Shown piece after piece: positions 2,465-59,328 of a stretch of 61,577 bases of DNA. The stretch is from a virus (lineage: Duplodnaviria > Caudoviricetes). A program made the translations under genes and the position numbers. Every line of letters begins with the position of its first letter. Positions within the stretch are counted from its first letter, which is position 1. Under the pieces are notes generated by a model, which saw only the letters and a program-made list of their open reading frames with translations, did not search any database and had not been told where the DNA came from. Where the stretch lies: positions 1-61,577 of IMG/VR virus record IMGVR_UViG_3300016471_000824, one strand, 5' to 3'.

Positions 2465-4642
2465 ATGAGTTGTTTTTGTCCTTCAGGCTACACCGCAGCA
2501 CCAGATGATAGTGAATGTATAAGAGAAATTACCGCATCAACAAGTGGTTCTGCTTCTACTCTGACAGTATTGAAATCTAGTAGCTCGATTATCAATGGAC
2601 ACATGGGTACAGTTTTTTATGAGGACATAACAAACTTGACTTATCCTATTATTTTGACAGGAATTACTGGTTTAGGTCAAACAAAAAATGGAACACCTAT
2701 TTTTAATACTAGTTTTTTTATTGATTCAGATACTTCAAAAAATTTAAAGGATAGAACTTTGAATTTTTTATTAGGAGGACCTGGTGTCGGAGAGTTTATA
2801 GTTACCCCAAGTAATGGTGAAAATTGTAACTTAAGTGGCACAACACACGGACCGAGAATATTTCCATGTGCCAATTCTAATACAGTGTGGGGTAATAAAA
2901 GTAGTGTAACATCATCAGGAAGGTTGAATTATTCAGGTGTTTGGCCTTCAACTTCTGGTTCATATCCACCAATAAACACATATATTGGTTTTACAGCATG
3001 TTTTGATAATCCAATTTCTCAAACATATTACATTGGAGTTGGTGCTGATGATTATTTCAGATTTAAATTAAATAATACATTATTAGTTGAGGCCAACACT
3101 AGTGGTTTTACAAATGGAGTTGAGTATAACTCAACCTCAGCTTATAGTATCTATGGACAAACTTTTGCTACTTGGTCAATTTTTCCGATAACCCTTGCAG
3201 CGGGTTCGAATTACATAGAAATGGAAGGACTCAATGTTGGTGGTTTTGGTGCTTTTGGTGCTGAAATTTATTCAGGAAGTATAACAACCTTAAGTGCAAT
3301 TACTGCTCAATCTGCTTTAACTTTAGTTACGGTTTTTTCAACACGAAATTTAACGGGTTCAACATTTGATAATGCAGGTAGTTCTGGTTTAACTTGTGCG
3401 AGTGGATTTACTTTAGTGACTTGCACTGGAACACCTTTTTGTTCTCAGGTTCTGAGGACACCTTGTACTGGAACCACAACTACAACTTCTACAACTACAA
3501 CCACAACAAGGTCTTATATAAATGCAGGATATATACCAGTGAACGATTGTAATGTTTTGACAATTCAACCTTTGAATGTTATTTGTAATGTTACAAATAT
3601 CAGTGGTACACCAGATAGTTCGAATGGTTCGATAACATTAAGTATTTTAGGTGGTGTTCCTCCATACACAATAGAATGGACATATCCGAATGGTGTAACT
3701 TCATTGGGTAATCAAACAATTTATGGATTATCTACAGGAAGTTACACAGCATTAGTAACTGACTATTATGGGGATTACACATTTTCAACAACTTGTGTTG
3801 TTCCGGGATTCACCACAACATCAACATCTACAACAACCTTACCCCCAATTCCTAATTATTTGGAAAATATTTTCTGTATGTCGATAACAACAGTAAAAAG
3901 AACTGGTGGAGCCCCAACACCAAATACAACTCAAATAACTTTTCAATATAATACATATATAAATGGACAAACTTCTTGGATATCAAATTCAGGTAATGAA
4001 ATAGTATATTATAACCCATCTGTTGGTACTTCAGGTGTGTGGTCATTGTCAGCATCAACTGGTAGTATTGTTAATACTGCATTAAGTACAAGTACTTGGA
4101 CAATATTCAAAGGATTCCCAAGTTCTCCAACTTCAGGCGCTTGGACTATGTCTGTTAGTCCACCATATCCATCACAACAAACTACAACATCTATTGGCGC
4201 TTGTACAGATTTCTTATCTCTAACAATTAATACTTGGTGGGCACTAGATGATTCTGATATACCAACTGTTTACAAATTTTCAGGTGCATGTGGTGGAGCA
4301 AATGAAACACCGTGGTTTAAATGGTACTTGACAGGTGGTTTAACAAGCTCAGACATAAGTACTTTTGAAATAGAATGTGAGGATTTGGATAACCCTGGTT
4401 ATATACATTGGGATGTTACAAATATACCGAATACAACTACTCAAGTTAGTTCATCAATACCTTGGCCTGGTGGTGTAACAATAAATCCAACAACTGGTGA
4501 CCCTGGTGCTTCTAATACTGAGGGTTGGGAAGGTCCTTGTCCTCCAGTAGGAAATACTCATACTTATTTAGTAACTCTAACAGCTAATTTAGTTGCAGGT
4601 GGAACATTAACAAGTACATACACATTTACTTCAACAACATAA
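2465..4642 (+). CDS. S/T-rich multidomain virion protein: PA14-like domain, SprB-like repeat, Thr tracts, C-terminal PEBP (YbhB/YbcL)-like domain
   Basis: GADDYFRFKLNN (PA14-like); NGSITLSILGGVPPYTIEW (SprB-like); TTTTTSTTTTTT; EDLDNPGYIHWDVTNIP...GWEGPCPPVGNTHTY (PEBP-like). Confidence 0.65.
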   Translation: MSCFCPSGYTAAPDDSECIREITASTSGSASTLTVLKSSSSIINGHMGTVFYEDITNLTYPIILTGITGLGQTKNGTPIFNTSFFIDSDTSKNLKDRTLNFLLGGPGVGEFIVTPSNGENCNLSGTTHGPRIFPCANSNTVWGNKSSVTSSGRLNYSGVWPSTSGSYPPINTYIGFTACFDNPISQTYYIGVGADDYFRFKLNNTLLVEANTSGFTNGVEYNSTSAYSIYGQTFATWSIFPITLAAGSNYIEMEGLNVGGFGAFGAEIYSGSITTLSAITAQSALTLVTVFSTRNLTGSTFDNAGSSGLTCASGFTLVTCTGTPFCSQVLRTPCTGTTTTTSTTTTTTRSYINAGYIPVNDCNVLTIQPLNVICNVTNISGTPDSSNGSITLSILGGVPPYTIEWTYPNGVTSLGNQTIYGLSTGSYTALVTDYYGDYTFSTTCVVPGFTTTSTSTTTLPPIPNYLENIFCMSITTVKRTGGAPTPNTTQITFQYNTYINGQTSWISNSGNEIVYYNPSVGTSGVWSLSASTGSIVNTALSTSTWTIFKGFPSSPTSGAWTMSVSPPYPSQQTTTSIGACTDFLSLTINTWWALDDSDIPTVYKFSGACGGANETPWFKWYLTGGLTSSDISTFEIECEDLDNPGYIHWDVTNIPNTTTQVSSSIPWPGGVTINPTTGDPGASNTEGWEGPCPPVGNTHTYLVTLTANLVAGGTLTSTYTFTSTT

Positions 4643-4644
4643 AT

Positions 4645-5370
4645 ATGATTCTAACTTCAATAGTTAATATAAATGATACCATATGCGGATGTGATGGTTC
4701 TTTTGCAATCCAAGGTTTCAATGGAAATCCACCATATTCATACTCAATAAATAATGGTTTAACCTATTTCAATACACCATTATTTAGTAATTTATGTCCA
4801 GGCCAATATTCCGTTATTGTTAAAGATGTATCAGGTGAAACCTCGACAAACTCAGTTATATTGAATACGTCCAATAACTCAATTACATATAGTGTTACAA
4901 TTAATACAGCTTCAACAACAATTACTAATAATACTACCACTTTAACTAAAAAGTACGATACAACAATTTCTGTTTTTCCAAGTTTACCAAGTGGTGTGAC
5001 ATTGACGTTCAATTTGGTTCATTTAAACACCTCGAAATCCTCTCCATATTCCGGTACTTCGACAACAACTTCAACGAGTAATTTATTAAAAAATAATGTG
5101 ACACAATCTATATCATATTCAAGTTTAACATTAAGTACAACATACAATTCAATACCAGGTTGTCAAAATCAAAATGTTTATATAAGCTCATTTACTGAGG
5201 GTTGGAATAATCTGACTTTGACAATTGCGGATAATATAGTTTTGACAACATACACAACTACAACAAAAAATCAAGATATTGCTTGTTATATAGGTCAGAG
5301 TGTTGAAAACTACTCACTTAGCAATGTTTCTATTTCTGGATGTTATTGTTGTAACATCATCGTAACATAA
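4645..5370 (+). CDS. S/T-rich protein with N-terminal SprB-like repeat
   Basis: CDGSFAIQGFNGNPPYSYSINNG...FSNLCPGQYSVIVKD; C-terminal CYCC. Confidence 0.6.
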   Translation: MILTSIVNINDTICGCDGSFAIQGFNGNPPYSYSINNGLTYFNTPLFSNLCPGQYSVIVKDVSGETSTNSVILNTSNNSITYSVTINTASTTITNNTTTLTKKYDTTISVFPSLPSGVTLTFNLVHLNTSKSSPYSGTSTTTSTSNLLKNNVTQSISYSSLTLSTTYNSIPGCQNQNVYISSFTEGWNNLTLTIADNIVLTTYTTTTKNQDIACYIGQSVENYSLSNVSISGCYCCNIIVT

Positions 5371-5393: not shown

Positions 5394-7814
5394 ATGGGAT
5401 ATATTTTAAAAAACACATCAGGTTTAATTAATACAAGAATAACAGATACTGGAAGACAAAAAATCTCTCAAGGTAATTTCAATATAAGTTATTTTCAAAT
5501 AGGTGATAGTGAAGTATCATATAATGCTATACCTCAAACAAGTTATAATCAGTACAATAGTAGGGTATTGGAGCCTAGTTTCAATGCTCAAAACTCAGCT
5601 GGAGTTCCACAATCAAATAAGGAAAATATAAAATATCCCTATTATGTTGATGGTAACAATGGTAATACGTATGGAATTCCATTTATGCAATCTATTGTTA
5701 GTCCAGTATATAACACAGCATCTCCAAGAGGATTCTTTTTGGGTACAACATCAGGTTCTTACATCGAATGGAGTGCAATTACAACTGGAGATTATGCACT
5801 TACTTCCAACTACATAGTTCAAATGAACACTTTGAATGGTTCAAATCTTATTACATTATCTTCGAGTACTTGTAACACAGATTTTGTGAGAAACTATCAA
5901 GTTGGTGACTTCATAACTATAGTATACGATGGTAGTGGTAGTGGTAATTGTAATTGTTTTACAGCAACAACAACCACAACGACAGCACCAGTAACAACGA
6001 CTACAACAACAACTGCTTGTGACCCACCTCCACCACCAACTACAACCACCACCACAACATGTCCAGTGACTAATTGTGGCCCATGTTTACCAAGTTATAC
6101 GGCAACATGTGTTGTTGATATGTCAAGTTGTTATACTATTTTGACTTATCGTATAACTGGTGTTTGTACAAATCAAATTAGTTTAGACAGACCAACACCT
6201 GACTTTACTTATTTGAGTGGAGATTGTTACGCACGTGTTATTGTCTATCCTTCTGGTATGACTGAAATTTATGATAGTGTGACACCTAGTCAACATTTTC
6301 CATATGATGTTATCAATTTCGAATCCGTTTGTTATACCGACCAATTCGATGTTAAAATTTGGAATATGAATATACCTTGGTCTGAAAGTCCAGCTGGATT
6401 AAATTCATCAACACATAAAGATTATACTCAATTTGGTTCGATAGATTATTTGGGTTCAAAAGAATATTTTGGTTACGCTTCAAGTAGTGGTCAAACTGAT
6501 ACAGATGCAACATATTACTACAATTCTTTTGATGATAAAATTATAGTTACACCTGAAGAACAAAAAGCAATTGCAATTATTCATTACACAAATAATACGA
6601 TAGATTTTTTCTATGGTGAAAAATTTGCTTTTGAACCTCATGACATTACATTACCAGCCGATACAACTGGTGAAGCGAGAAATTTTAAATTACACATACC
6701 TTGGTTGATGTGGCATAAAAATTCACAATGTTGTTATGGCCAAACATTTTATGTCGATCCTCCAGGTTTTGATGATTTGATAATTCCACTTTTTACTGTA
6801 AATTATTTGGAATCAAAACAAAATCAAGACATGAACAACCCTGGTATTAGGTATTATCATCTTTGGGATACAAATCCAAACCCAAGTAGCACACCTATAG
6901 CAGGAATACCCAATAGAGTAGGTAAAGTTTTTCCTGACCATAAGTTAATCATAATTGATGATGAAGAAATTGTTGCGGCAATGTCTTATAAATCAAATAG
7001 AAATTGGACTTTACCTGCACCAAGAATTGCTTTAATTACACCTAATATTTGTGGATTAGATAGTGAATCTGTTGAGGGTATATTAACTGGTGAAACACAA
7101 TATCTTCATGTTACTTACAGATTAAGTAATTCATCTGCCTACACAAACTCATTACATTCTAACTATTATCAAATAATTCAAGGACCAAATATAACTTGTA
7201 ATCCACAAAGTTCACAAAATGTAAGTGTTAGATTTGGAGATGAATTTAATTGTCTTTCATCAAATCCAAGTATATGTTCCGTAAATTGTGATATTACATC
7301 GGGATATATAGCTGATACATTCGAAATTTTATGTCAAAAAATTGAAGGAAATGGGCGACCTGAACCTTCGGAATGGAAAATAATCGATTATTCTTTTCAA
7401 TTAAGTGGGACGAATCTTAATGGTTATATTACCCAATCAGGTTTAACTGGAAATACCTTCGTCATAACTCAAGATTTGTACGATAATGCACCCTTGTATG
7501 ATTTAAGTGATTATATTAATTTAACAACTGTAGGATATTCAGGAACACAATTAAACTTTGGAGATGAATATTATTTTTATGGTAATATAGAAACTGATAT
7601 TCAGGCAACAATTTATGAAATGAGATATCAAGTAGTATTAGGTCAGTCAGAATTTCAATATTCCTCAAATCCATCATGGAATACAACAGTACAACCATTT
7701 ATAACTGAAGTTGGTCTTTACGATTCTGATAAAAATCTTATGATTTTATCAAAATTACAATCACCTTATCCAAGAACAGGAATTCAACAATTTGTAATCA
7801 AATTAGACATTTAA
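5394..7814 (+). CDS. Baseplate/fibre-attachment structural protein with Thr/Pro/Cys-rich insert
   Basis: N-terminal ITDTGRQKI...FQIGDSEVSY and C-terminal ITEVGLYDSDKNLMILSKL match large-phage baseplate/tail-collar-like proteins; TATTTAT at 5383-5389. Confidence 0.6.
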   Translation: MGYILKNTSGLINTRITDTGRQKISQGNFNISYFQIGDSEVSYNAIPQTSYNQYNSRVLEPSFNAQNSAGVPQSNKENIKYPYYVDGNNGNTYGIPFMQSIVSPVYNTASPRGFFLGTTSGSYIEWSAITTGDYALTSNYIVQMNTLNGSNLITLSSSTCNTDFVRNYQVGDFITIVYDGSGSGNCNCFTATTTTTTAPVTTTTTTTACDPPPPPTTTTTTTCPVTNCGPCLPSYTATCVVDMSSCYTILTYRITGVCTNQISLDRPTPDFTYLSGDCYARVIVYPSGMTEIYDSVTPSQHFPYDVINFESVCYTDQFDVKIWNMNIPWSESPAGLNSSTHKDYTQFGSIDYLGSKEYFGYASSSGQTDTDATYYYNSFDDKIIVTPEEQKAIAIIHYTNNTIDFFYGEKFAFEPHDITLPADTTGEARNFKLHIPWLMWHKNSQCCYGQTFYVDPPGFDDLIIPLFTVNYLESKQNQDMNNPGIRYYHLWDTNPNPSSTPIAGIPNRVGKVFPDHKLIIIDDEEIVAAMSYKSNRNWTLPAPRIALITPNICGLDSESVEGILTGETQYLHVTYRLSNSSAYTNSLHSNYYQIIQGPNITCNPQSSQNVSVRFGDEFNCLSSNPSICSVNCDITSGYIADTFEILCQKIEGNGRPEPSEWKIIDYSFQLSGTNLNGYITQSGLTGNTFVITQDLYDNAPLYDLSDYINLTTVGYSGTQLNFGDEYYFYGNIETDIQATIYEMRYQVVLGQSEFQYSSNPSWNTTVQPFITEVGLYDSDKNLMILSKLQSPYPRTGIQQFVIKLDI
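5961..6059 (+). repeat. ACN/CCA codon run encoding a Thr/Pro linker
   Basis: Encodes TATTTTTTAPVTTTTTTTACDPPPPPTTTTTTT with mixed Thr codons. Confidence 0.8.
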
Positions 7815-7817
7815 TTT

Positions 7818-8417: not shown

Positions 8418-10562
8418 TTACGGACCACAACTAACACAATTAATATTGTACGAAATAATCACACTAATCACCACAGTTGCATCAATATAATCTATAGATG
8501 GATTACATAAAGTACTTATTGTAATTTCACCAGTAACAGGATTAATTACCACACTTTCTATTTCAGAATACAAATCTAATAAAATTTCCACAGCATTATA
8601 AAAAATAGTATCTGATGGAAAATCAGTAAGTCCTGATGTTGTATAAAAACCTATTGAGTTAGTTACCCCATTCACATCTACTTGACAAACAAATGTAGCA
8701 GCACTTAATAAACAATTAGTATCACCAGATGTTAAATCATGGAAACCTTCTAAAAACATTTGTTGTAATCCTTTTTTAATCAATTGTCCAGAGTTTTTGA
8801 AATCACCATCACATAAATTGTAAACTTGGTATGAGGTGATTAGATTATATCCAAAAAGGGATACACTCCTTGTTTGATTACAACCAAAATCATCTGTAAC
8901 ACTTAATGTGTACGTTCCTGCAGTAAGTCCAGATATAGTTGAACCAGTTTGTCCACTCGGTACATTTGAACTCCAATTATAAGAGAAGGGGGGTTCACCA
9001 TCTAATATAAATGTCTCTATTACACCATCATTACCCGCTAAGGGTGATATTGGATTTAGAATAAAGTTTACAGACGAAGAACTTGGTATAAGAATTGGAA
9101 TAAATTGTTGACATAGATTTGCATCTATTACTGATGCTGTGTAATTACCTGAAGCTAAACCAGAAAATGTATATCCTGATAAACTCGTGTTAACTATGAC
9201 ACCATCCAATTGATAAATATATGGTGGTGTACCACCACTACTTATATTCAATGTAACAATACCATTATTTTGTCCACAAGTTGTACCTGAAACTACAGAA
9301 CTTAAGTTATAAAGAATTGTATTATTAATGGTTACTGATTGAGTGAAAACACAAGGTCCCCCATCTGTTATTTGTAAAGTATAGCTACCCGATTCTAAGG
9401 CGTTGAAATTAACGTTTGTTGCATTTGTTATCGTTGTTGCTGAATTTCCAGTATAATCTATTAAAGTGTAGGAATAGGGAGGTGAACCACCAAACAATGA
9501 AACAGATATAACCCCAGTATTATTATTACATAAAGAATTTGTTGTAGAAACCGATACATTTGTAAATGAATTTGGAGTTAATAAAACTGTTGAGGCAACA
9601 AAATTACAAAGACCAGCATCGGTTACACTTACTGAGAAATTACCTGCTGGAAGTCCTGTAAAAGTATGACTTGAACCAAATGTAACAATAACAGCACCAT
9701 TAGAACCTGAATAATAAAAAGGTGCCGTTCCACCTGTTGCTACAATTGTAACTGAACCATCAGACGTATAACATGAAGGATTTGTTATTGTAAAAGTTCC
9801 AAATCCTATTGGAGGTACTTCGTCAACAACAACACCTAAACTACTTGAACATCCTGCACTATCAGTAACAACAACATTATAATTACCTGGTGTTAATCCT
9901 GTAATTGATTGTGTAGTTGAACCATTAGACCATAGATAAGTATAAGGCGGAACTCCAGTTTGTCCTGTAACATAAATAGCCCCTGAATCTACAGCACAAC
10001 CCGCATCATTAATAACATAAACACCAAAATCTAATGTTGAGGATGATTTGACGATACATGATTCTGACTTACCAGTACAACCACCACCATCATCTGCGAC
10101 AACATAATACGTACCTGCTGACAACGAACCAAAAGTAAACAAATTATTAAAACTTTGACCTGAACTTATAAATCCATTATTTGTTTCATAAAGTGAAAAT
10201 ATAGGTGAATTATAAAAGTTTGTTGTGTCAGCAGTTAAACTACCATTATTTAAATTACAAGTTGTATTTTGTATTTCAGTTATGGTTACACAAGTACCAG
10301 TAGATATATAAACACTTACTGGAAATGTAGTGCTGCCACCTGAACAACTATCAATGACACTAAATACATAAGAACCACCCGAAAGATTAGTTAAAGAGTA
10401 ACCAGTTGCACCACTTAAGGGAATTGTCCCGAAATTGGGACTTATCCATGAGATTGTATAATCAGGAGCACTACCAAAAATACTAACATTGAAAGCACCT
10501 ATGGAAGAATTACTACAATCACCAGTTACACTATTTACTACTACATCTAAAAAACAAGCCAT
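8418..10562 (-). CDS. SprB-repeat adhesin-like virion protein
   Basis: About 7 repeats of C...G.I....GG..PY.Y.W...GL..G.Y.V.V.D..GC. Start reassigned to the ATG at 10562 (MACFL), which overlaps the upstream TAA (TAATG). Confidence 0.75.
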   Translation of the reverse strand: MACFLDVVVNSVTGDCSNSSIGAFNVSIFGSAPDYTISWISPNFGTIPLSGATGYSLTNLSGGSYVFSVIDSCSGGSTTFPVSVYISTGTCVTITEIQNTTCNLNNGSLTADTTNFYNSPIFSLYETNNGFISSGQSFNNLFTFGSLSAGTYYVVADDGGGCTGKSESCIVKSSSTLDFGVYVINDAGCAVDSGAIYVTGQTGVPPYTYLWSNGSTTQSITGLTPGNYNVVVTDSAGCSSSLGVVVDEVPPIGFGTFTITNPSCYTSDGSVTIVATGGTAPFYYSGSNGAVIVTFGSSHTFTGLPAGNFSVSVTDAGLCNFVASTVLLTPNSFTNVSVSTTNSLCNNNTGVISVSLFGGSPPYSYTLIDYTGNSATTITNATNVNFNALESGSYTLQITDGGPCVFTQSVTINNTILYNLSSVVSGTTCGQNNGIVTLNISSGGTPPYIYQLDGVIVNTSLSGYTFSGLASGNYTASVIDANLCQQFIPILIPSSSSVNFILNPISPLAGNDGVIETFILDGEPPFSYNWSSNVPSGQTGSTISGLTAGTYTLSVTDDFGCNQTRSVSLFGYNLITSYQVYNLCDGDFKNSGQLIKKGLQQMFLEGFHDLTSGDTNCLLSAATFVCQVDVNGVTNSIGFYTTSGLTDFPSDTIFYNAVEILLDLYSEIESVVINPVTGEITISTLCNPSIDYIDATVVISVIISYNINCVSCGP

Positions 10563-13500
10563 TACACACAATAAATTGAGAAGTTTATTCCGACATTTAA
10601 CTTAAAGTTAATACCGACCTCAGAAACAGAACATATCTGATTATATACTACTATAGTATCACTACTAGTAAAGTAATAATCATAACCCAAAGGTTTGATT
10701 AAATTTAAGGCAGCTACCAATGCTGTATCCCAATCAGATGTAGTAGGATAACTCAAAGGTATCAAGTTATATCCAATACCATTGAAAAATGAATATGAAA
10801 CTACTTGTATATTATCGATTCTGATATCAACATACCATTCAGTTGATAAAGTATTCAAACTACAATTGTTTGTGTCATATCCGATTGATGTTAAATATTC
10901 ATTCAGTAATTGCCCTAAAACGTTTCCAAAACTACCGAGATTTGGGTTACTTTTCCAAGGATATTTAGAACACTCAGTATTTTGTACGGCACAATCAAAG
11001 GTATATAAATTATCTATTAGTTCACAAGGTCTACATGGATTTGGTCTCAAGGATTTGGGTGTAGTAGAGTTTGAACAAACTACACTAGAGGTAGAACTTA
11101 TCGTTCCAGCTATATTTGTAATATTTGTCCATATACCACCAACAGGACAATCTGAACTTGAATTCAGAGTCCCAACTAAAAAACCATCGTAATAGTATTC
11201 CCATCGTGTAGAACCTGAATTATAAGAAATTACCATATCTCTACTCAATCCACAACAAGGATCATAACCCAAAAAAGATTCTTTCCCATTAACATATCCA
11301 TTTGGACTTAAGATACTTATAAGTGTACTTGTATTTCTTGATGAACCGGTTAAACTTATACATTCACATGATTGAGTTGAACTAGGGGTTGTTGTTACAA
11401 TTTGACATCCTCTTTGTCGCTTCCATTGAAATTTTTGTCTATGAAAGATTGAATTTTCTAACTTCACACCAGTGTTCCATATAGTTGTTGCTGGAACCAT
11501 TTGTTCAATTAAACGTATCCAATAATCTCCCAAACCATTAACATATTCAATCATAGTTCGGTATGTAAAATTATTATTTTCTATATTAACATCCTGTAAT
11601 GATTGTAAATATTTCCAATAAATCGATTGTAAAGTTGGGTAACCACTTGTTTTACCATCAGTGGAGTATTGTCTGTTTCTTACGTTGATAGTGTTTTTCC
11701 AAAAAGTTTGAGCGAATTCAAAAAAAGTTTTTTGTTTGGGTTCTGGATTAATTATAGTCCAATCGACACCACCTCTGTCTGGATAACAAGTTGGGGCATT
11801 TGGAAAACAACTATTTGGATTAACATAATTTAAACCTTCATTTGGTATTGGATAATTATACAAACGTGACATATACCATACATCATATAACAAACCTTGT
11901 GCAGGATTTAAAAATATTTCAGTATTTTTAACGTTCAAAACTAATTTATCATCAGATACAAAGTATCTTGCATTAATATTACCATCCAAATTAACTCTCA
12001 ATAAAACTTCAGTATCATACCAAGATTTATTGTTATCAACTGAGGGTGAAATATTATATCCCAATTGTAAAAAAGGAAATTTTCTAAACCTATCCAAATA
12101 TTCCTGACCATAAGTGTAAGGTTTCAAACTTGTTTGATAGTCAGGATTCAATCCGCGAAAAACACTTAAAGTTGTATTAACTTCTTCAGGTGCTCTGTGT
12201 TGTGGTGTTTGTTCAAACCATCCACTTCCTATTTGAAAAAAATATGTATCACTATCTGTTATAGTTTTAGGGAAGCCAAATTCATCTATAGGGAATTCAT
12301 CGATAGTAATGTTAACATCCCTAATTGTGGCTATTGTTGTAAATCCAGTGTATTGTATACCAAATAAAGTAAAAACGTTTGAACTTTCTAATGTTGGTGT
12401 TTGTTCAACTAAAGTACCACCTGATATTTGTGCAAAATAACTATTGAATTTGTTTATATTGATTCGTTGATCGGCTAAATAAACATATTCATTAAATTCA
12501 ACCAAAGCTTCTGGTGCACCAATTAATCTCAATAAATTTTCTATGGACTTTCTTGTACCTTTTGATTTGAATAAATAAGCGGTGTTCAAAATAACATTTC
12601 TATAAAACTGATAATTCAATTCATTTGGTGTTTTGGAAATAGGTACACCACTATACGAGGACTTTTCTTGATTAGATTGTCCAAACACTGAGTTCAAAAA
12701 GTCCGTATTTGTTATTGGTGAAATGTTTGTTTGCCAACCCAAAGTTTGAGCCAAATTTCTTAATAGCTGAGAGGGTATATCATTTCTGACATTATAATTT
12801 ACTGATGTTACATACGACAAACTATTAATATACTTATTTACCTCATCAAAACTTCTTCCATAAATTTGTAATACTTTATCCATCTTTTGTCCGATGGTAT
12901 CAAATTCTTTAAAAGCAGGTGTTGTAAAAAATCTTGATATTAAATCGGTTCTATAAGAATCAAATGATACACTTATATCATTGAGTGTTGTTAAATAATC
13001 TGTAAAAGAACTCGAAATAATGTCTAAATTCCATAATCCTAAAATTGGCCAACTTACTGAAGCAGTATCCGAATAGTATGTTCCATCTTCTGTTTCTTTT
13101 GGTACAACAAATGATGCGGTATATATAGGTGTTGCATTTCTGTTCAAAAGAAAATTCTCCACTTCGTCCAAATTCTCATTGAATACTTTATTAACTTCAC
13201 TATCATTTGGTCTGATAATTATGTTTCCAAAAACATTAGTTTCACCAGAAAATGGATTACCAATAATGGTTATATTTAAATTACCTGATGTCAATGAGTT
13301 TGTTGGTATTATACGTTTCAATTGATAACCATTATCACCATAATAAAGCGAATATTTAGCATATTCCAAAGTCATATTTCTCAAAGAAGATACTGGTATT
13401 TCTCTTAATGATAGATTTCTCGTAGAGTTAGTTGTAAAATCTATACCGAATGGATTTCTTATTTTTGTTAAATCTAAGTTAAAAGTAGTTTCATTATAAA

Positions 13501-13927
13501 TCGGATTGAAAACAATATTGAAAGCTGTTACTCCTGTTGTATAATCGTTTCTTAAAGTTGTTGATTCTATAGCAGCGGGAAAATAACTAATTATTTGTGT
13601 TACAGCTGCAGACATCCTTTTAGACATAGATCCATAAAGCACAAAATTATTTACTTGAGTTAAATCAAAATTTGGATAAACTTTATAATTATTTTCAATA
13701 ATTGCTTTAGCTTGATTTATATCAACAATCCCTAAAGAATCTAAACTTATTGGATTCGAAAAAGTACCAGTAGAAAAATTTCTATTTACTTTTTCACTTG
13801 CTGAGAGTGTGAAGTTAAATGTTCCTTGTGTCAAACCACCACCATTCACTAGTTGTAAACCAACTAAATTATTTGCAAAAGTACCAACACCTGATGGAGT
13901 TTGAGGAGGACATGTATATTTTGCCAT
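10562..13927 (-). CDS. Baseplate wedge subunit (P2 gpI / T4 gp7-like)
   Basis: LLRNLAQTLGW...YLFKSKGTRKSIENLLRLIG...EFNEY, the tail_P2_I-type motif. Confidence 0.65.
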   Translation of the reverse strand: MAKYTCPPQTPSGVGTFANNLVGLQLVNGGGLTQGTFNFTLSASEKVNRNFSTGTFSNPISLDSLGIVDINQAKAIIENNYKVYPNFDLTQVNNFVLYGSMSKRMSAAVTQIISYFPAAIESTTLRNDYTTGVTAFNIVFNPIYNETTFNLDLTKIRNPFGIDFTTNSTRNLSLREIPVSSLRNMTLEYAKYSLYYGDNGYQLKRIIPTNSLTSGNLNITIIGNPFSGETNVFGNIIIRPNDSEVNKVFNENLDEVENFLLNRNATPIYTASFVVPKETEDGTYYSDTASVSWPILGLWNLDIISSSFTDYLTTLNDISVSFDSYRTDLISRFFTTPAFKEFDTIGQKMDKVLQIYGRSFDEVNKYINSLSYVTSVNYNVRNDIPSQLLRNLAQTLGWQTNISPITNTDFLNSVFGQSNQEKSSYSGVPISKTPNELNYQFYRNVILNTAYLFKSKGTRKSIENLLRLIGAPEALVEFNEYVYLADQRININKFNSYFAQISGGTLVEQTPTLESSNVFTLFGIQYTGFTTIATIRDVNITIDEFPIDEFGFPKTITDSDTYFFQIGSGWFEQTPQHRAPEEVNTTLSVFRGLNPDYQTSLKPYTYGQEYLDRFRKFPFLQLGYNISPSVDNNKSWYDTEVLLRVNLDGNINARYFVSDDKLVLNVKNTEIFLNPAQGLLYDVWYMSRLYNYPIPNEGLNYVNPNSCFPNAPTCYPDRGGVDWTIINPEPKQKTFFEFAQTFWKNTINVRNRQYSTDGKTSGYPTLQSIYWKYLQSLQDVNIENNNFTYRTMIEYVNGLGDYWIRLIEQMVPATTIWNTGVKLENSIFHRQKFQWKRQRGCQIVTTTPSSTQSCECISLTGSSRNTSTLISILSPNGYVNGKESFLGYDPCCGLSRDMVISYNSGSTRWEYYYDGFLVGTLNSSSDCPVGGIWTNITNIAGTISSTSSVVCSNSTTPKSLRPNPCRPCELIDNLYTFDCAVQNTECSKYPWKSNPNLGSFGNVLGQLLNEYLTSIGYDTNNCSLNTLSTEWYVDIRIDNIQVVSYSFFNGIGYNLIPLSYPTTSDWDTALVAALNLIKPLGYDYYFTSSDTIVVYNQICSVSEVGINFKLNVGINFSIYCV

Positions 13928-14835
13928 TACGAAGTGATATTAGTGAAGTTTTTACTGAAATCTATATTGTTACCTCTGTCTTGTCTTACCTCGAATAGAA
14001 GCTCGTTAAATTGGTCTCTGATTTCGTATAGATTATATTGTCTATAAATATTATTTTGACTATCATAATAGGTGTACATGCCATCATCAATAGATTTAGT
14101 TTGATTACCGTAAAGTGCTATCGCTAAAGTGGAGAAGTCATGTTCGGCAACTTCAATATCTAATGTTATAGGGTTAAAAAATGTGTTAGAAATTATTATA
14201 TCTTGGTCAGGTTGTCCAATATAAGGTATTGCATTTGGTTTATTTGTTGGGGCTGATGATGGAGAAAGTGTGCAAAATAGTAATCCACTATTAGTGTCTG
14301 TATATCTATATCTGATAGCTTTTTGAGAAGTATTAGTCAAGTTTTGAATTACTGGTTCACAAAAAAAAGATGATGTAATTACTCTGAAAAAATTTGGTAT
14401 TTTTGAACCATCGGTGTTGAGATATTCAATTCTGAACCCTACTAAACCTTGATTTGTAAATTTATTCCTATATTGATTTGGTACTTCATTTAAATCAATT
14501 ATAATTCCTCTAACGTTGGGTAATGCGGACAAAACACCACAATCCAATATTTTTGTTCTGATTTGTGTTGGTCTTAAGTATATAGTGTATATCCCGAGGG
14601 CGTTGAATTGATCTGCCGGTAATTTTAAATTATATAAACCACCCAATATTTCTATATTGGCATTTCCACCTGTATTTGAATTATTGAAATATGGTCTTAA
14701 TATTGATACTGAATCTAACTTCGTTAATACAAAATTAGCAGTGTCATCTCTAGAGGGAGTATAATGTAAAATTATCTCAACGTCTTCTGGTGAAACATCG
14801 GATGGTCTTATAGTACCATAACTTGCGAGTGCCAT
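13927..14835 (-). CDS. Hypothetical protein, probably structural
   Basis: 302-aa ORF, TAATG-coupled to the next gene; TATTTAT at 14878-14884 (minus). Confidence 0.55.
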   Translation of the reverse strand: MALASYGTIRPSDVSPEDVEIILHYTPSRDDTANFVLTKLDSVSILRPYFNNSNTGGNANIEILGGLYNLKLPADQFNALGIYTIYLRPTQIRTKILDCGVLSALPNVRGIIIDLNEVPNQYRNKFTNQGLVGFRIEYLNTDGSKIPNFFRVITSSFFCEPVIQNLTNTSQKAIRYRYTDTNSGLLFCTLSPSSAPTNKPNAIPYIGQPDQDIIISNTFFNPITLDIEVAEHDFSTLAIALYGNQTKSIDDGMYTYYDSQNNIYRQYNLYEIRDQFNELLFEVRQDRGNNIDFSKNFTNITS

Positions 14836-16069: not shown

Positions 16070-16923
16070 TATAAACTTGGTGGATTAACATATTCGTACC
16101 ACTTCATAGGATTTGTTGTTGTACCTATTCTGATGTTATTGTTTTTACCATCGAAAATTTCATATTTTTTTGTGTCATAATTTATTATCACTTTATTGTA
16201 GAAATATATACTTGAGTCAAATTGGTATTTGTTTGGCAAACGACATTGTGGTTCGTTCATCATTCTTACAAAAACTCCTAATTTGGCATCAAAAAATTTC
16301 ATGGACATATAAAATGTATTTAATGATAAAAATTGTGGAACACTTAACCAATACAAAAAAAATCCCTCTTTATCACCAACAAAATCTAATTTATATTTTG
16401 GTATTTTAACTTGTACTGGTGGAATATAAGGAGATATTGAGGTAGTTGTTGTAAATCCTTGTTGTGTTGGTATAATAATGGTAAAATAATTTGTTTGATT
16501 TTTTTCATCAGGTCTATCATAAAAATCTACCTTGAAAAAAGAATTTGCAAAAGAATTTGCAAAATAATATAATTCTTTTGAATCGAAACCCTCAGCTATA
16601 TAACTGTTACCCCAAAGTGTTAAACCAGTTGAACTTGGTGTTGGGCAAGTAGTCGCACTTAGAGTGTTAACATTTCCACTAAAAAAATAAAATTCATAAT
16701 TTAATGATGTCTCAAAATTTGTTGGTGAATATTCATTGTGTGAATATCTACCAATTTCAAAGTCAAATGGAATACCAATAACTTGTCCTAAAACTTCGTC
16801 CTCATATAGTTCAATACTATCGGTTCTACCTAAGAAATCTTCTGTGATTTCAATAGGAATGTTAATCTCTTGTGATGTGATTGGTATTGTTATATAATAT
16901 CTGTTACTATTCACAATTATCAA
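16069..16923 (-). CDS. Hypothetical protein, probably structural (start uncertain)
   Basis: Long ORF overlapping both neighbours in the baseplate operon. Confidence 0.55.
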   Translation of the reverse strand: MIIVNSNRYYITIPITSQEINIPIEITEDFLGRTDSIELYEDEVLGQVIGIPFDFEIGRYSHNEYSPTNFETSLNYEFYFFSGNVNTLSATTCPTPSSTGLTLWGNSYIAEGFDSKELYYFANSFANSFFKVDFYDRPDEKNQTNYFTIIIPTQQGFTTTTSISPYIPPVQVKIPKYKLDFVGDKEGFFLYWLSVPQFLSLNTFYMSMKFFDAKLGVFVRMMNEPQCRLPNKYQFDSSIYFYNKVIINYDTKKYEIFDGKNNNIRIGTTTNPMKWYEYVNPPSL

Positions 16924-25974: not shown

Positions 25975-25978
25975 AGAA

Positions 25979-26437: not shown

Positions 26438-26484
26438 AACAATAAATATATGTCCTATATTTTTTCTATAAATACCATAAAACA

Positions 26485-26510: not shown

Positions 26511-26516
26511 ATATTT

Positions 26517-53245: not shown

Positions 53246-53401
53246 TTATTTATCAGATGTGTGGTATTCAATAATTTTATTAATCAAGTATTTTCTTGAA
53301 AAAGTTGGAATGTTTAGGAAATCATTATATGAAGTGTGTAAATATTTTCCCATTAAAAAATATTCATCCAATAATATTTCCCTATATTTAAAAGAAAGGC
53401 C
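53246..53401 (-). CDS. Unannotated 51-aa +1-frame extension of the tail assembly chaperone
   Basis: GLSFKYREILLDEYFLMGKYLHTSYNDFLNIPTFSRKYLINKIIEYHTSDK*; begins immediately after TTT TTT C and fills the gap before the tape measure gene. Confidence 0.7.
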   Translation of the reverse strand, partial: GLSFKYREILLDEYFLMGKYLHTSYNDFLNIPTFSRKYLINKIIEYHTSDK

Positions 53402-54146
53402 GAAAAAATTCAACACCAAAAGTGACCTCCAATTTCACTTCTGCACCTGATGGTGCTTTTACAACTCTTTTCAAATCTAATGATGGTTCATTTTCTTTTA
53501 TAAATTTTTTAATAAATTTGGAATCCATAATTGGAAGATTATTAATCATTTGAGATATTTTTTCTTTGTCACTTTCTCCATTAATTTCTACAATTTGTTT
53601 CATCAACCTCCATGTTATCCTTGGTGCAGTTAAATTAGATGGATAATTTTCAACCATTTTGTCTAATTCTAAAATCTCACCATAAGTCAATGGTTTTAAC
53701 TTAACATTAACTTCACTTCTAGGTAATTTAATATTAAAGTGTCCGTTTTCATCAGGTAAAACATTTGGTTTAATAATATTCAATTCATCTAATATTATCG
53801 TTACCTCAAATGGTTTATTAGTTACGGGATCGTTAAGAGTCAATATGTATTCAGGTCCGAATGAAGTATTCCTCAAATAAATTAAGATAGCCTCGATGTC
53901 ACCTTCTAATAACTCTTCAGGTTTAATGTCAACTTCATACAATTTTGCCCTTATTAAAGTAGTAACAACATTAACATTTGGATTTGATACACCACCTATG
54001 ATGATGTTTTCATCATTTGCTGTTAAATAACCTACTTTAACAGATTTCTTTTTGTTTTTATAAAAAATACCACCCGATGGTAAAGGTACAACATCGTGTG
54101 GCAAATTAAAATTTTCTGTGCCAGCTTTTATTAAATTAGAATCCAT
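53388..54146 (-). CDS. Tail assembly chaperone / T4 gp26-like hub assembly protein
   Basis: VPLPSGGIFY, YLTANDENII, GDIEAILIYLRNTSFGPEY, C-terminal EFFRP; lies between tube and tape measure. Confidence 0.75.
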   Translation of the reverse strand: MDSNLIKAGTENFNLPHDVVPLPSGGIFYKNKKKSVKVGYLTANDENIIIGGVSNPNVNVVTTLIRAKLYEVDIKPEELLEGDIEAILIYLRNTSFGPEYILTLNDPVTNKPFEVTIILDELNIIKPNVLPDENGHFNIKLPRSEVNVKLKPLTYGEILELDKMVENYPSNLTAPRITWRLMKQIVEINGESDKEKISQMINNLPIMDSKFIKKFIKENEPSLDLKRVVKAPSGAEVKLEVTFGVEFFRPFF

Positions 54147-54196
54147 AGTTTTTTATTGTAAAAATAATTGTACAATAAAAAAAATAAACATTTGAT

Positions 54197-54685
54197 TTAA
54201 TAAACTAGAATACAACGGTCAGGTCTAAGAGTTGCTTGTATAGTTGCTAATTTGTCATCACTATAACCTAAACCTTGAAAGTCAACATCAGTTAAGAAAC
54301 AACCTTCTAAAATCCATTTTTCAACAACAACTCCAGTAGGGTCTAACATTTCTAAGTCAACATTTTTTTTGTAACCTGCGGCATAACCCATACGACCAGT
54401 TACTGATTCAGCGTGTAAACGAACCCACTCCATAAGTGCTTGAGCGGCAGAAGGACCGATAGGGTCTCTAAAAGTTACACTTATTGTTCCCCATTTGAAT
54501 GAACCCGCAACATAAGTTTCAGTATTTAAAAATGGAATTGGAACTGAATTTATTTCAATTTTTGGTCTTGATGTTGATTCAACAAACCATTCATTTATAC
54601 CCAAAGAAGAAGGAAATCTCATAATAAACCTATTGGATCTTTTAGGTTCATAAGGTATGGGCATTTTCATCAGTAAATCAGCCAT
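54197..54685 (-). CDS. Tail tube protein (T4 gp19-like)
   Basis: YEPKRSNRF, WGTISVTFRDPI, LMEW, YKKNVDLEMLDPTGVVVEKWILEG. Confidence 0.85.
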   Translation of the reverse strand: MADLLMKMPIPYEPKRSNRFIMRFPSSLGINEWFVESTSRPKIEINSVPIPFLNTETYVAGSFKWGTISVTFRDPIGPSAAQALMEWVRLHAESVTGRMGYAAGYKKNVDLEMLDPTGVVVEKWILEGCFLTDVDFQGLGYSDDKLATIQATLRPDRCILVY

Positions 54686-55737: not shown

Positions 55738-58700
55738 TTAAATGTTTTCAAACGAAGCTCCTGTTGGAGTGATGTAGAATGTAATATCTATAAATTCAAG
55801 GGAGCGAGTTGGTTTAATATAAATTTTACCAGTTAATTGATTTCTATCCAAATCAGCAGGATCCGATGAAACCGTAACACGGAAATCATACAAACCTCTA
55901 TCTCTTCTTATGGCATCTAAAATTGGATTAACCGCATCTAAGAAATCTTGTCTAACTTTTTCATCATTTTGTTCGAACAATAATCTTACTGATACTGCTG
56001 AGATTAATTTTCTTGCTTGTAATAATAAACGTCTTACATTAATTCTATCCAAAGCAGATTCTCTAATTTGTAAAGTTTTATTACCGAAAATTACTGTCCC
56101 AACATCTGAGAATGTTGCAATTGGATTTAATCTACCCTTATAAAGTGTATCTCTTTCCTCTTGAGTAAGTTTTCTTCTGGCCTTAATAGCGTTTACAATA
56201 CCTCTAGTATAACCTGCAGCCGCAAACCAAGGGAAGGCTATATTATCTGTCAAAGCTAAATTTCTACATACCTCAGCTGTTGGTGGAATATAAATTTGTG
56301 TATTGTTCACGGTATCTCTAGTCAACACCCAAGGATAGTAAGTAGCTGTGTAGTTTGAATCAATTCCAGTTGTTTCTAAATTATCGACAGCTTCTTGTGG
56401 ATAAATAATATCAGTTTGTTCACCTGTTGTTGGTACTAACATATTGTAGTCTGGAGTTGTGGTGATATAGATAGAATCGGCTCTATCAAACTCTACCATT
56501 TCTATTGCAGCTTCAACAAGATTACTATTATTTACATAATCAATACCAGGTGTAGTAAATACATTAATATTAACTGCTTCAGGATTTGCAAATGTTTGTT
56601 GTCCCAACAAATAAGCATAATAATCAGTATTTGCATAATCTTGTGTTGTATTACCAACTGTTATAGTTTTAAATGCACCCCATCCAGTTGCAGTTGGATA
56701 TCTGAAAGAAGGACATGCTCCTTTTAAATAACCACTTCTACCTAACACAAATTGGTCACCATTAGTTCTTCTTTCTCTATAAATGTCCCAACCATCAAAA
56801 CCACCAGAACATAATAAACTAAATTTACGAGCAAATATTCTGTAATATGGATTTGTTTCATCATCAGGGTCTGAAGTAAATGTTCCACTACCAACGAAAA
56901 ATTCTGCAGTACCACTAGTTGTAAATGAATTAGCAATTGTAATACCTGACGCATTGATGTCCATATGGAAACCTTTTGTTCTATAAGACCAATCAGCACC
57001 AGTTGTTGCGTCACAAATACTTGAACCAGGTAAACGTTTCCCTTTGTAAGTAAAGAAGTCAACATCATAACCAACCGTGTCAGAAATACCTAAATATGTT
57101 CTTCTTACATTATCACCTGCACTTCTTAAAGCGTCATCAGCTCCTGAACTCAATCCAAAAGGTGGATTGAAAACTACCTCACCCGGGAAATCATATTTTG
57201 TTTTGTAAATTGGGAATGGAGATTTTACACCAGCATATTCTCTTGTATTGTAACCTAAGAAACCACAAGGTAAAGCATCTATTGGTGCATCTTCATTCAT
57301 TTCTAACATTACAAATTTCGAATTTAAAGCGTATTCACCATCTTTCGTACCAATTTTTTTAGCAATAAAGTTATTCTCGTTAGGATTCATAGAACAATTT
57401 GTGAATTTCTCTAAAACTACTGGATTGGAGTCAGTATCAAAAAAATCTCTGATTAAGACATCAAAAGTTCCATTATTGAAGGACATATTAGCCATAGATA
57501 TTTTAACTTCAACATTTGCCGCATCACCATCAGCTATTGTTGTAAATCTGAAAAGATTGAATACTTTATTACCTCTAAGTTCAGATACAACCCATGGAGA
57601 AACTGGTGATTGATATCTTTCCAAGTAAAATGCTATCGATGTAATATCTGATTCTTGTCTTGCATTTGGTAATGCAGTTAGATTACAATTCAAACCTCTA
57701 ATATATCCTTTTCTATAAGCATAATTTAATAATGATTGGAATCTTTCCTCAACAAATAAAGGTGTAGTAGACCTAGGTTTTGCAAAGTTAGAAGAACCGA
57801 AAACTTTTGCTAAATATTTAGGATCTGAATTAGTAAATGAAGTTTCAAAAGTAAAGTTTTCTCCATCTTTATTTGTCACATTCAATGCAAATGTTGCGTA
57901 AGGGTTTCTAGTTACAGCTGAATATATACCAGTACAATTCATAGTTACATCAGTTGTTCCACTCACTTCATACACCGGACCATCATCAGTTCCATATGTG
58001 GCAATACCTCTTGAACGTAAAGTTGCAATCACTAAGTCATCATAATCTGTATAAGACAATCCACTATAAATGTATATATTACCGGTAATACTACCACTAT
58101 AACAATTCGTTATCGTTCCAAGTTGTATTGAACCAGTATTACCTGTGGCACAAACACCACAAGGATCTGTAAGTAATAGGTTGACTGTCCAAGCAGAAGT
58201 TGCTGTTCCATCATCAGAAACAATTGTGTATGTTCTAGTTAAAGAACTAAAGTTGTATCCTAATGTTGTCGCTGATTGTATTACACCACCACTAGTGACC
58301 GCACTTAAACTTGTTGGACAAGCACTATAAGTAATCGTTAATGCAGTTGTATTTGCCGTAGTTGCCGTTGATGGTAAACAAACATTAATTACATTTGTAT
58401 TGTAATTTATTGACCCCGCTATCGAACCAAGTGTTGTTGAACTAATCGAATAACTAAAAAAAGAAGCACAATTGGATAGTGATGAAGTCAAAGTCAAACT
58501 ATTTACATAATCATAAAAAGAATAACCTGAATATTGTCCGTTACCAATATTGTCAAATGTTGCATAATACCAAGTATCATTTACAGCTGCTGTATAATCC
58601 GCTAAATTAGAATTAATATTATCAACACCAAACACATTATTTTGTGAAGTGAATGCAGATAGTTGATTTGTTATCGTATCTCCTGAAACTATACCAAAAT

Positions 58701-59328
58701 AATTAATAGACGTTGCTGATGTTGATGGTGTATTCAGTATGTTGAAAATCTGACTTTTAATATCAGTATCAATTGTTGAAGTTGATCCATTAAATAATTC
58801 ATATGTACTATATAAATCACCTGATAATAGTGTAGGTATTGAGGATGTGTAAGAAATAGAATCAATATTATTTGTACAACCAGTGAAATTAGTAGTGTAA
58901 CTACTAACTTTAAATTGAACACATTGAGTAATACAACTTACAGTGGTAGCACTCGCACAATCAAAACCAACAGTTGATTGGTCAACATTTGCTATTGTGG
59001 AAATAGACCAAGAAGGTCCCGCATCATAACCAGATAAACCAAGTATTCTTGTTACGAATAATTGATTTGATTGTTGTAAATATGCTTTAGCAATATAAGC
59101 TGCTTCATATTTAGGTATTTGTGTGTTTATAAATTTTTCAGGAGAAGTACCACCGAAATATGTTGTAAATTCGTCAAAGTTTGTAATAAAAATAGGTTCA
59201 AAGGCAGGACCTTTTAAAGTCTCACCAACTATACCAAGAGTTGTTACACCAACACTTTGTGATACAAAACTTAAATCGACCTCAGAAGTATAAACACCAG
59301 GAGATACAAAAACTTTACTGTTTGACAT
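55738..59328 (-). CDS. Tail sheath protein (T4 gp18-like) with large inserts
   Basis: FVSPGVYTSEVDLS, ATYYPWV, PWFAAAGYTRG, RINVRRLL, FEQND, IYIKPTRSLEFI. Confidence 0.93.
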   Translation of the reverse strand: MSNSKVFVSPGVYTSEVDLSFVSQSVGVTTLGIVGETLKGPAFEPIFITNFDEFTTYFGGTSPEKFINTQIPKYEAAYIAKAYLQQSNQLFVTRILGLSGYDAGPSWSISTIANVDQSTVGFDCASATTVSCITQCVQFKVSSYTTNFTGCTNNIDSISYTSSIPTLLSGDLYSTYELFNGSTSTIDTDIKSQIFNILNTPSTSATSINYFGIVSGDTITNQLSAFTSQNNVFGVDNINSNLADYTAAVNDTWYYATFDNIGNGQYSGYSFYDYVNSLTLTSSLSNCASFFSYSISSTTLGSIAGSINYNTNVINVCLPSTATTANTTALTITYSACPTSLSAVTSGGVIQSATTLGYNFSSLTRTYTIVSDDGTATSAWTVNLLLTDPCGVCATGNTGSIQLGTITNCYSGSITGNIYIYSGLSYTDYDDLVIATLRSRGIATYGTDDGPVYEVSGTTDVTMNCTGIYSAVTRNPYATFALNVTNKDGENFTFETSFTNSDPKYLAKVFGSSNFAKPRSTTPLFVEERFQSLLNYAYRKGYIRGLNCNLTALPNARQESDITSIAFYLERYQSPVSPWVVSELRGNKVFNLFRFTTIADGDAANVEVKISMANMSFNNGTFDVLIRDFFDTDSNPVVLEKFTNCSMNPNENNFIAKKIGTKDGEYALNSKFVMLEMNEDAPIDALPCGFLGYNTREYAGVKSPFPIYKTKYDFPGEVVFNPPFGLSSGADDALRSAGDNVRRTYLGISDTVGYDVDFFTYKGKRLPGSSICDATTGADWSYRTKGFHMDINASGITIANSFTTSGTAEFFVGSGTFTSDPDDETNPYYRIFARKFSLLCSGGFDGWDIYRERRTNGDQFVLGRSGYLKGACPSFRYPTATGWGAFKTITVGNTTQDYANTDYYAYLLGQQTFANPEAVNINVFTTPGIDYVNNSNLVEAAIEMVEFDRADSIYITTTPDYNMLVPTTGEQTDIIYPQEAVDNLETTGIDSNYTATYYPWVLTRDTVNNTQIYIPPTAEVCRNLALTDNIAFPWFAAAGYTRGIVNAIKARRKLTQEERDTLYKGRLNPIATFSDVGTVIFGNKTLQIRESALDRINVRRLLLQARKLISAVSVRLLFEQNDEKVRQDFLDAVNPILDAIRRDRGLYDFRVTVSSDPADLDRNQLTGKIYIKPTRSLEFIDITFYITPTGASFENI

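Follow-up and report, generated by a model that had tools for sequence, protein, structure and literature searches.

A clade-wide [ST][GA]xT motif on the virion proteins of uncultured T4-like phages, a candidate acceptor sequon

Introduction

The capsid protein of chlorovirus PBCV-1, a eukaryotic virus, reportedly receives N-linked glycans at a non-canonical sequon from an atypical, virus-encoded machinery that works in the cytoplasm. In mycobacteriophages, phage-encoded glycosyltransferases (GTs) modify proteins of the particle, with glycans reported at the C-termini of capsid and tail-tube subunits (Freeman et al., 2023, as cited in passages of PMC12619734). The NGT and Agt enzymes of Actinobacillus act in the cytoplasm on folded adhesin-like proteins (PMC12159676). 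The O-glycosylation system of Bacteroidota reads the sequon D-[ST]-[A/I/L/V/M/T], an excess of which in one protein class marks the presence of the system, and Gly after the Ser/Thr abolished glycosylation in B. fragilis (passages of PMC12871550). Here we describe a short motif, [ST][GA]xT, enriched in the virion proteins of a T4-like myovirus represented by IMG/VR record IMGVR_UViG_3300016471_000824 (61,577 nucleotides; hereafter the window, meaning the whole 61.6-kb stretch), and we weigh whether it could be the acceptor sequence of a phage-encoded O-glycosylation system.

The window is the whole of its virus record, is estimated to represent 21% of a genome and has a G+C content of about 31%. 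PHROG and Pfam scans assign a tail sheath (1196 amino acids), tail tube, baseplate hub, and gp6-like and gp25-like wedge proteins, as well as NrdA/NrdB, a DnaB-like helicase, an exonuclease, a methylase, a UvsX-like protein and SSB; many large proteins have no family. The closest deposited relatives are distant, with the gp6-like protein sharing 24-30% identity with LR756508 (an uncultured 484-kb phage), Flavobacterium phage immuto and Microcystis phage Mel-JY01. The window phage plausibly infects Bacteroidota, and the open reading frame (ORF) starting at 8418 encodes SprB repeats whose bacterial relatives, six out of six, come from Bacteroidota.

Compared with the described systems, the motif resembles Bacteroidota O-glycosylation in being a short, Ser/Thr-centred candidate sequon enriched in one protein class. 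It differs in that the residue before the Ser/Thr is hydrophobic rather than Asp, the residue after it is mostly Gly, and a Thr three residues on is required. Like mycobacteriophages, relatives of the window have GT genes beside structural genes, but the present proposal is of a defined sequon, with internal sites distributed across many proteins and absent from the tail tube. The parallel with Actinobacillus NGT/Agt lies in a GT-B enzyme of this phage clade, whose sole solved relative is the Agt homologue AmGGT (E 4.3e-7). The Actinobacillus system, however, is N-linked and uses N-x-S/T, whereas N-x-[ST] stands at 1.01x of expectation in the 14 virion-block ORFs defined below, and the partner gene here is a GT2. 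With PBCV-1, the features in common would be a virus-encoded cytoplasmic machinery and a non-canonical sequon on a capsid protein.

Results

Virion proteins of the window carry an excess of [ST][GA]xT

The original prediction, made from the letters of the window, described a hydrophobic-[ST]-[GA]-x-T pattern recurring in structural proteins and proposed it as a glycosylation sequon. We scored [ST][GA]xT as the main pattern, numbering the Ser/Thr as position 0, the Gly/Ala as +1, the Thr as +3 and the preceding residue as -1, and we took expectations from within-protein shuffles (n=1000 for the all-ORF set). Counting against composition-preserving shuffles bore out the enrichment: the 38 ORFs of the window together hold 97 sites, where 36.6 are expected from local shuffles and the maximum reached in 1000 shuffles is 63. 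Fourteen ORFs of the virion block (12,587 amino acids) account for 95 of these sites, against 28.1 expected from whole-protein shuffles; these ORFs were chosen partly after the counts had been seen, and the figure for all 38 is the selection-free one. Each of the 14 has sites, 11 of them at two or more times the shuffle expectation, and the baseplate and fibre block has 40 against 9.4 expected (about 4.3x).

The remaining 24 ORFs hold two sites against 5.3-5.6 expected, a TGKT in the exonuclease and a SAIT in an HNH ORF (27751..28917). The rarity claimed outside virion proteins therefore stands, although the exact count of one that accompanied the claim does not. The pentapeptides that had been quoted are all present: YTGFT, LSGGT, LTGLT, FTGST and YTAYT in ORF 14891..16069, YTGTT (two copies), ISGYT and SSGFT in 16907..18730, LSATT in 16069..16923, FSGET, ISGGT and YTGFT in 10562..13927, VTGTT, FSGFT and VTGST in 18727..24060, and VTGNT, ITGNT, ISGGT and ITATT in 39001..45993. 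The earlier by-eye counts of 13 sites in ORF 2465 and 14 in the tail sheath are right.

Chance, composition or paralogous repeats might in principle produce such an excess. Other protein sets do hold single a-b-x-c patterns at z 7-8, mostly from repeats, such as DT.Y in Mel-JY01 (14 of 18 copies in one protein) and AG.Y in SprB-like proteins, and several sites of ORF 8418 lie within repeated SprB units. Against this, shuffling within blocks of 40, 20, 12 or 8 residues gave expectations of 30.7-33.5 for the 95 sites seen (z 10.8-13.1), and z was still 10.8 with blocks of 8 residues, which rules out composition, whether overall or local. In an unbiased scan of all a-b-x-c patterns, with the ranking restricted to those with an expectation of at least 3, S-A-x-T (23 against 4.7 expected) and S-G-x-T (33 against 8.7) ranked top, and T-A-x-T and T-G-x-T likewise fell within the top seven. 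Because these patterns lead the scan, Thr-richness is not the explanation of the excess. The carrier families are mutually unrelated by all-against-all BLAST and by eight family hidden Markov models (HMMs), except that 4645..5370 and 8418..10571 have a common domain. Paralogy is thereby ruled out as the cause, and the description of the carriers as unrelated proteins holds at the BLAST and profile-HMM level for all but this pair. With four patterns rising together and sites in every virion-block ORF, we regard the probability of chance, composition or paralogous repeats as negligible.

A nucleotide-level word is likewise ruled out as the source. Codon use at the sites, including the choice between the two Ser codon families, is that of the background, and neither of the remaining frames shows a signal, which places the signal at the amino-acid level. 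The sites are clustered, yet no spacing dominates, and a solenoid-type repeat was rejected.

The motif is sharply defined and distinct from the host sequon

Enrichment of [ST][GA]xT is 3.03x, and it is 1.06x with Ser at +3, 0.93x with Val/Ile and 1.15x with an aromatic residue there. Spacings other than one residue gave 1.12-1.32x and the reversed order 0.96x. Placing Asn or Asp at position 0 gave 1.18x and 1.06x, respectively, and S, N, P, D or V at +1 gave 0.37-0.99x ([ST]VxT, 0.48x). Among the 94 of the 95 sites with full context, +1 is Gly in 55 and Ala in 39. At -1, 54% of window sites have a hydrophobic residue, against 34% in the background, with Leu enriched 2.8x and Asp without enrichment.

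The likely host phylum has sequon-driven O-glycosylation (passages of PMC12871550), and the general Bacteroidota system might be what modifies these proteins. In that system, however, Asp is needed before the Ser/Thr, Gly after it is excluded, and only non-cytoplasmic proteins are modified (passages of PMC12871550). In the 14 virion-block ORFs, D[ST][AILVMT] stands at 0.97x, Gly is the commonest residue at +1, and in the family of ORF 14891 the host sequon is depleted (36 against 65.3 expected, 0.55x, z -4.2). Signal-peptide-like N-termini were not seen by eye or in a hydropathy scan, no dedicated predictor having been run. Modification by the host system is highly improbable, and the motif is distinct from the Bacteroidota sequon, as had been proposed. 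A literature search, at the level of listings plus passages of PMC12619734, turned up no description of the motif, nor of any sequon by which phage virions are glycosylated.

Sites lie in clade-specific parts of the virion

The tail sheath (55738..59328, minus strand) has 14 sites against 4.2 expected. All 14 fall inside a 735-residue insertion (residues 101-835; 56824..59028, minus strand) that is missing from T4 gp18 and for which 3.5 sites are expected, and the conserved N- and C-terminal cores hold none. Similarly, in the capsid protein of a complete 318-kb relative (G002), four of the five sites lie in a stretch without alignment to T4 or Mel-JY01. The window proteins that are conserved in outgroup phages, namely the gp6-like and gp25-like baseplate wedge proteins (24136..26485, minus strand) and the baseplate hub and tail tube (53388..54685, minus strand), have no sites, against 1.5 expected. 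This distribution fits a location of the sites on exposed, fast-evolving parts of the virion, exposure being suggested by the insertions and by charged replacements in a sister lineage described below.

Enrichment is clade-wide

All 54 loci reached through ORF 14891 (42-92% identity) are enriched, at 2.07-4.80x, as are 40 of 40 further lineages, at 2.24-5.81x; these 94 related loci were scored with their flanks. Another 80 loci, pooled, hold 810 sites against 393.1 expected. The gp6-like protein, used as a query for distant relatives, returned close ones only. Controls stand near chance. Two T4 sets gave 19 sites against 20.8 expected (0.91x) and 18 against 17.0 (1.06x), and the single T4 proteins gp34, Hoc and gp12 hold 1 against 4.8, 1 against 2.6 and 2 against 2.0. 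The values for Mel-JY01 are 1.30x and 1.06x, for LR756508 1.45x and 1.26x, and for immuto 1.45x and 1.38x. The enrichment is clade-wide and not general, and the motif is present throughout a very large group of uncultured T4-like phages whose host phylum is probably Bacteroidota.

These controls bear on the possibility that the motif has no reader at all and reflects a structural habit, ending one beta-strand and starting the next in beta-rich domains, with selection acting on folding or stability. Immuto lends this some support. Its structural proteins hold S-G-x-F 23 times against 6.4 expected, and [ST][GA]x[FYW] is enriched 2.1x beside 1.4x for [ST][GA]xT, the former value falling to 1.6x once a tail spike with 9 of the 23 S-G-x-F is excluded. 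Bacterial SprB-type domains also carry a partial consensus, phi-[ST]-G-L-x. A turn preference should, however, be universal, yet T4 fibres, Hoc and baseplate proteins stand at 0.91-1.06x.

The SprB repeats of ORF 8418 allow a closer comparison. Some of its sites lie on the SprB/Ig-like consensus phi-[ST]-G-L-x-[AP]-G-x-Y and on the S-G-G-T of the repeat, but in the bacterial members the residue equivalent to +3 varies (G, C, N, S, A, T), whereas Thr is fixed there in the phage clade. In bacterial SprB-like homologues of ORF 8418 there are 45 sites against 37.0 expected (1.22x), and the motif occurs in 24 of 231 aligned site instances. A plain SprB/Ig consensus is thus ruled out as the origin of the ORF 8418 sites.

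The motif is conserved as a unit while its positions shift

When window sites are compared with homologues at 40-66% identity, the full motif is retained in 416 of 769 comparisons (54%), where background class conservation predicts 10.4%. Retained sites exchange Ser and Thr at position 0 and Gly and Ala at +1. The conservation footprint covers -1 to +3 only, with the flanks at background. The Thr at +3 is identical in 71% of cases, against 38% for other Thr residues and a background of 0.48, and 73% of the homologue residues at -1 are hydrophobic. The motif gave 27 conserved columns, where eight control patterns gave 0-7, and 100 rare lineage-specific columns, where controls gave 57-116. The alignments indicate that selection acts on the motif as a unit, and on this point the original prediction holds: the signal on virion proteins is real, is under selection and has sharp limits.

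The family of ORF 14891 illustrates how sites turn over. Its 41 representatives (50%-identity clusters) hold 268 sites against 42.1 expected. Remote members have 9-14 sites each, sometimes in tandem T-G-x-T-T-G-x-T arrays, of which only 0-3 are common with the window, so that density is kept while positions shift. Lineages have thus gained sites at different positions, in agreement with the earlier description of the motif as convergently acquired. In ORF 10562..13927, ISGGT and YTGFT are retained in 24 of 24 distant clade homologues and are lost in locus L254.

L254 is a 9.3-kb contig with a syntenic block at 34-65% identity. It retains none of 18 aligned window sites and holds two sites in total, against 1.6 expected. 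Sites that are invariant in the clade are replaced there (ISGGT by ISEGK, LTGLT by LKDLS, YTAYT by FVKYE), and 15 of the 43 replacing residues at 0, +1 and +3 are D, E or K by hand count from the alignment. Such charged replacements fit solvent exposure of the sites. Since this sister lineage has the same folds with none of the 18 sites, the folds do not need the motif. Outgroup sheaths retain none of four sites. Searches for longer motif-free contigs returned one 9.3-kb contig with P0147, none with P0154, and enriched lineages only with the 954-amino-acid neighbour.

For the idea of a structural habit, these comparisons count in both directions. The 27 strongly conserved columns favour it, as do the hydrophobic or aromatic neighbours on both sides of conserved sites, with indels nearby and a mostly hydrophobic -1, and the retention of YT[GA]YT in members of the ORF 14891 family that are only about 30% identical. 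On the other hand, the same folds occur without the motif in bacteria, L254 and outgroup sheaths, and +3 favours Thr alone and not Ser, Val/Ile or aromatics, with Asn and Asp not favoured at position 0. The interchange of Gly and Ala means that no special Gly conformation is required, and remote homologues hold the density at other positions with no dominant periodicity. We consider it unlikely that a structural habit without a reader accounts for the motif.

Sequence searches and gene distribution do not support ORF 1461 as the reader

ORF 1461 (1461..2435, plus strand; phrog_4417) had been called a glycosyltransferase and suggested as the enzyme that reads the motif. It has no sites itself and is a well-conserved accessory gene with 1207 relatives, at 66-84% identity among the matches listed, and an H-D-A-D (D103, D105) and H267 are invariant across 25 sequences. 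Searches against Pfam gave no match at E up to 10, and none to PF23452 or PF23741. Sequence and profile searches of the PDB found no solved structure and no GT, hhalign against a true GT2 family gave a probability of 1.2%, and its distant phage homologues match no Pfam GT family. The hints of a GT are the invariant H-D-A-D, which could be a DxD metal-binding motif, and a weak language-model lead (Atlas) to a neighbouring cluster, 10% of whose members have HPAT. Pfam, the PDB, hhalign and the two candidate families therefore offer no support for ORF 1461 as a glycosyltransferase.

Nor does the gene travel with the motif. A homologue is present in 4 of 13 related records and is missing from three estimated to be 89%, 88% and 99% complete, which are enriched 2.46x, 2.84x and 3.67x. 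Three phages with distant homologues show no enrichment (0.98-1.26x). Co-occurrence of ORF 1461 with the motif is ruled out by these absences and presences, which leave the gene without support as the reader.

Distant homologues of ORF 1461 (33-37% identity) directly follow the major tail protein gene in Enterococcus phage phiFL1A (L060, 25916-26824) and Lactococcus phage 1706 (L061, 10504-11355), and members of the family occur sporadically in Firmicutes phages and in one Chryseobacterium phage. Gene context suggests an accessory tail-module function for this family.

Relatives encode a glycosyltransferase pair beside the head genes

Proteins of the window, an estimated fifth of the genome (21%), gave no match to PF00535 or PF00534. 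Related records encode a pair made up of a GT-B and a GT2. Of 14 related records, 10 have the GT2 of this pair, among them all four with an estimated completeness of 88% or more, and the records without it are fragments estimated at 34-46% complete; for three of the records that have it, the pair was deduced from the positions of family matches and from ORF sizes rather than by protein search. At least 426 viral-contig stretches encode this GT2. Neither member of the pair matches any of 50,697 GenBank phage records. The Agt homologues of AmGGT extend the glucose on glycopeptides (PMC12159676).

G002 has the pair in the interval from PhoH to the head genes, as part of a glycan gene island of about 12 kb (17265-28630) just upstream of the head genes. 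The island encodes a dual GT2 (PF13712 and PF00535), an FAD/NAD-binding protein, an exostosin-like GT47, a xylose-isomerase-like TIM barrel, PhoH, the GT-B and the GT2. The clade-conserved GT-B and GT2 pair is a better candidate for the reader than ORF 1461. G002 also encodes two mucin-like ORFs (about 1-2800 and 312217-317844) with Ser plus Thr contents of 53% and 30%, in which [ST][GA]xT falls under the shuffle expectation (10 against 52.2 and 25 against 36.5).

The motif as a candidate acceptor sequon

The best reading of these data is that of a clade-specific recognition motif, apparently on exposed parts of the virion. Hydrophobic-[ST]-[GA]-x-T would be a short linear motif held by selection on exposed, fast-evolving parts, namely the insertions of the sheath and capsid proteins and, at the periphery, baseplate and fibre proteins. 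The likeliest mechanism is that it serves as the acceptor sequon of a phage-encoded O-glycosylation system, a proposal to which we assign a probability of roughly 0.45. Such a system would act in the cytoplasm, before or during assembly, with the Thr at +3 as the acceptor or as the residue that matters most for recognition. ORF 1461 is probably not the enzyme responsible, which may instead be the GT-B (Agt-like) and GT2 pair with its glycan island, encoded outside the 61.6-kb fragment. From the original claim of a modification signal, then, the selected motif on virion proteins stands and the reader proposed for it lacks support, while glycosylation is what we infer.

The same statistical evidence would apply equally to recognition by another clade-specific factor, such as a chaperone for the assembly of fibre and decoration domains, a kinase or another enzyme that modifies Ser/Thr, or an activity that forms cross-links, and it leaves the chemistry unspecified. 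No candidate for such a factor was found. Glycosylation is the simpler guess because a Ser/Thr-centred motif on exposed parts goes together with a GT pair and island beside the head genes, and we hold recognition by some other factor to be distinctly unlikely.

Several points weigh against the motif being a glycosylation sequon. We know of no glycosylation system with this sequon. The association of motif and GT pair is seen within one large clade and so counts as one evolutionary event, and the GTs of these large phages could instead modify DNA, build host surface glycans or act on the mucin-like proteins of G002. Avoidance of the motif in other proteins might be expected if the enzyme is cytoplasmic and promiscuous, and none is seen: the virion-block ORFs of G002 hold 136 sites against 49.4 expected, and the 241 ORFs outside its virion blocks hold 39 against 40.3. 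The excess lies mostly in conserved and not in rare columns, as a structural role would also give, and many conserved sites have hydrophobic or aromatic neighbours. Because immuto has a milder related pattern, a turn-then-strand habit may give part of the signal. Finally, L254, the only motif-free lineage found, is too short at 9.3 kb to show its GT content, and its loss of Gly, Ala, Ser and Thr codons may partly be drift, its G+C content being only 26%, and not the loss of a reader.

If the sequon is true, phage-encoded protein glycosylation would gain its first defined acceptor sequence, one readable straight from metagenomes, where hundreds of related contigs show it, and glycan-coat maps of uncultured phages could be drawn in silico. 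The finding would touch on the ways in which phages evade or adhere to hosts, grazers and waterborne particles, and could supply a portable tag-and-enzyme pair for glyco-engineering. A wider picture, which we hold a shade more tentatively than the sequon itself, is that abundant uncultured aquatic T4-like phages run their own cytoplasmic, sequon-directed O-glycosylation, in which the conserved GT2 and Agt-like GT-B, together with a variable glycan island, would write sugars onto hydrophobic-[ST]-[GA]-x-T sites. Selection would hold these sites at high density wherever the particle is exposed, giving a glycan coat with positions that drift from lineage to lineage, likened to the glycan shields of animal viruses. 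If the reader is not a GT, a clade-wide, selected five-residue motif in unrelated virion proteins would point to an unknown assembly or maturation step.

Motif-bearing ORFs and other features of the window

Besides the sheath, the motif-bearing ORFs are as follows. On the plus strand, a virion structural protein of 404 amino acids (218..1432; phrog_1645) has 5 sites against 1.1 expected, and a Thr-rich, Cys-rich protein of 725 amino acids (2465..4642) has 13 against 5.3. The latter ends in a PEBP domain (residues 608-707, E 1.2e-10, above the Pfam cut-off), and its N-terminus shows, by eye, an EGF-like Cys pattern. Next come the 241-amino-acid protein that has a domain in common with ORF 8418 (4645..5370; 3 sites against 0.9 expected) and an 806-amino-acid protein without known family (5394..7814; 8 against 1.8).

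The following ORFs are on the minus strand. The 717-amino-acid protein with SprB repeats (8418..10571) has 17 sites against 3.2 expected, and a baseplate-block protein of 1121 amino acids (10562..13927) has 5 against 1.8. A 302-amino-acid protein (13927..14835) has one site against 0.3 and, taken alone, is without enrichment. ORF 14891..16069, of 392 amino acids and with a weak PKD-like segment, has 6 sites against 1.3, the 284-amino-acid ORF 16069..16923 has 2 against 0.2, and the 607-amino-acid ORF 16907..18730 has 5 against 0.7. A 1777-amino-acid protein adjoining the wedge genes (18727..24060) holds 4 sites against 1.9 expected, and all four are preceded by a hydrophobic residue, where 0.7 such sites are expected. 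The 2330-amino-acid tail protein that had earlier been called a hub (39001..45993; weak match to phrog_52) has 10 against 2.9. Cys is unusually frequent, at 17-26 residues each, in ORFs 2465, 5394, 8418, 10562, 18727 and 55738, which is odd for proteins made in the cytoplasm.

A further tail-block protein, of 1685 amino acids (46310-51367), has two motif sites against 2.7 expected and is thus without enrichment; it contains a weak OmpA-like segment at residues 880-943 (E 1e-4, below the Pfam cut-off).

The nrdA gene of the window is split (26517-30544, minus strand). ORF 28961..30544 encodes the N-terminal part of the ribonucleotide reductase large subunit and 26517..27758 the C-terminal part, and between them lies the 388-amino-acid ORF 27751..28917 with its C-terminal HNH endonuclease domain. 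No group I intron was found in the nrdA region at the Rfam gathering score. In G002, NrdA is intact, as a single ORF of 804 amino acids. An nrdA split by a homing endonuclease has a precedent in an Aeromonas phage.

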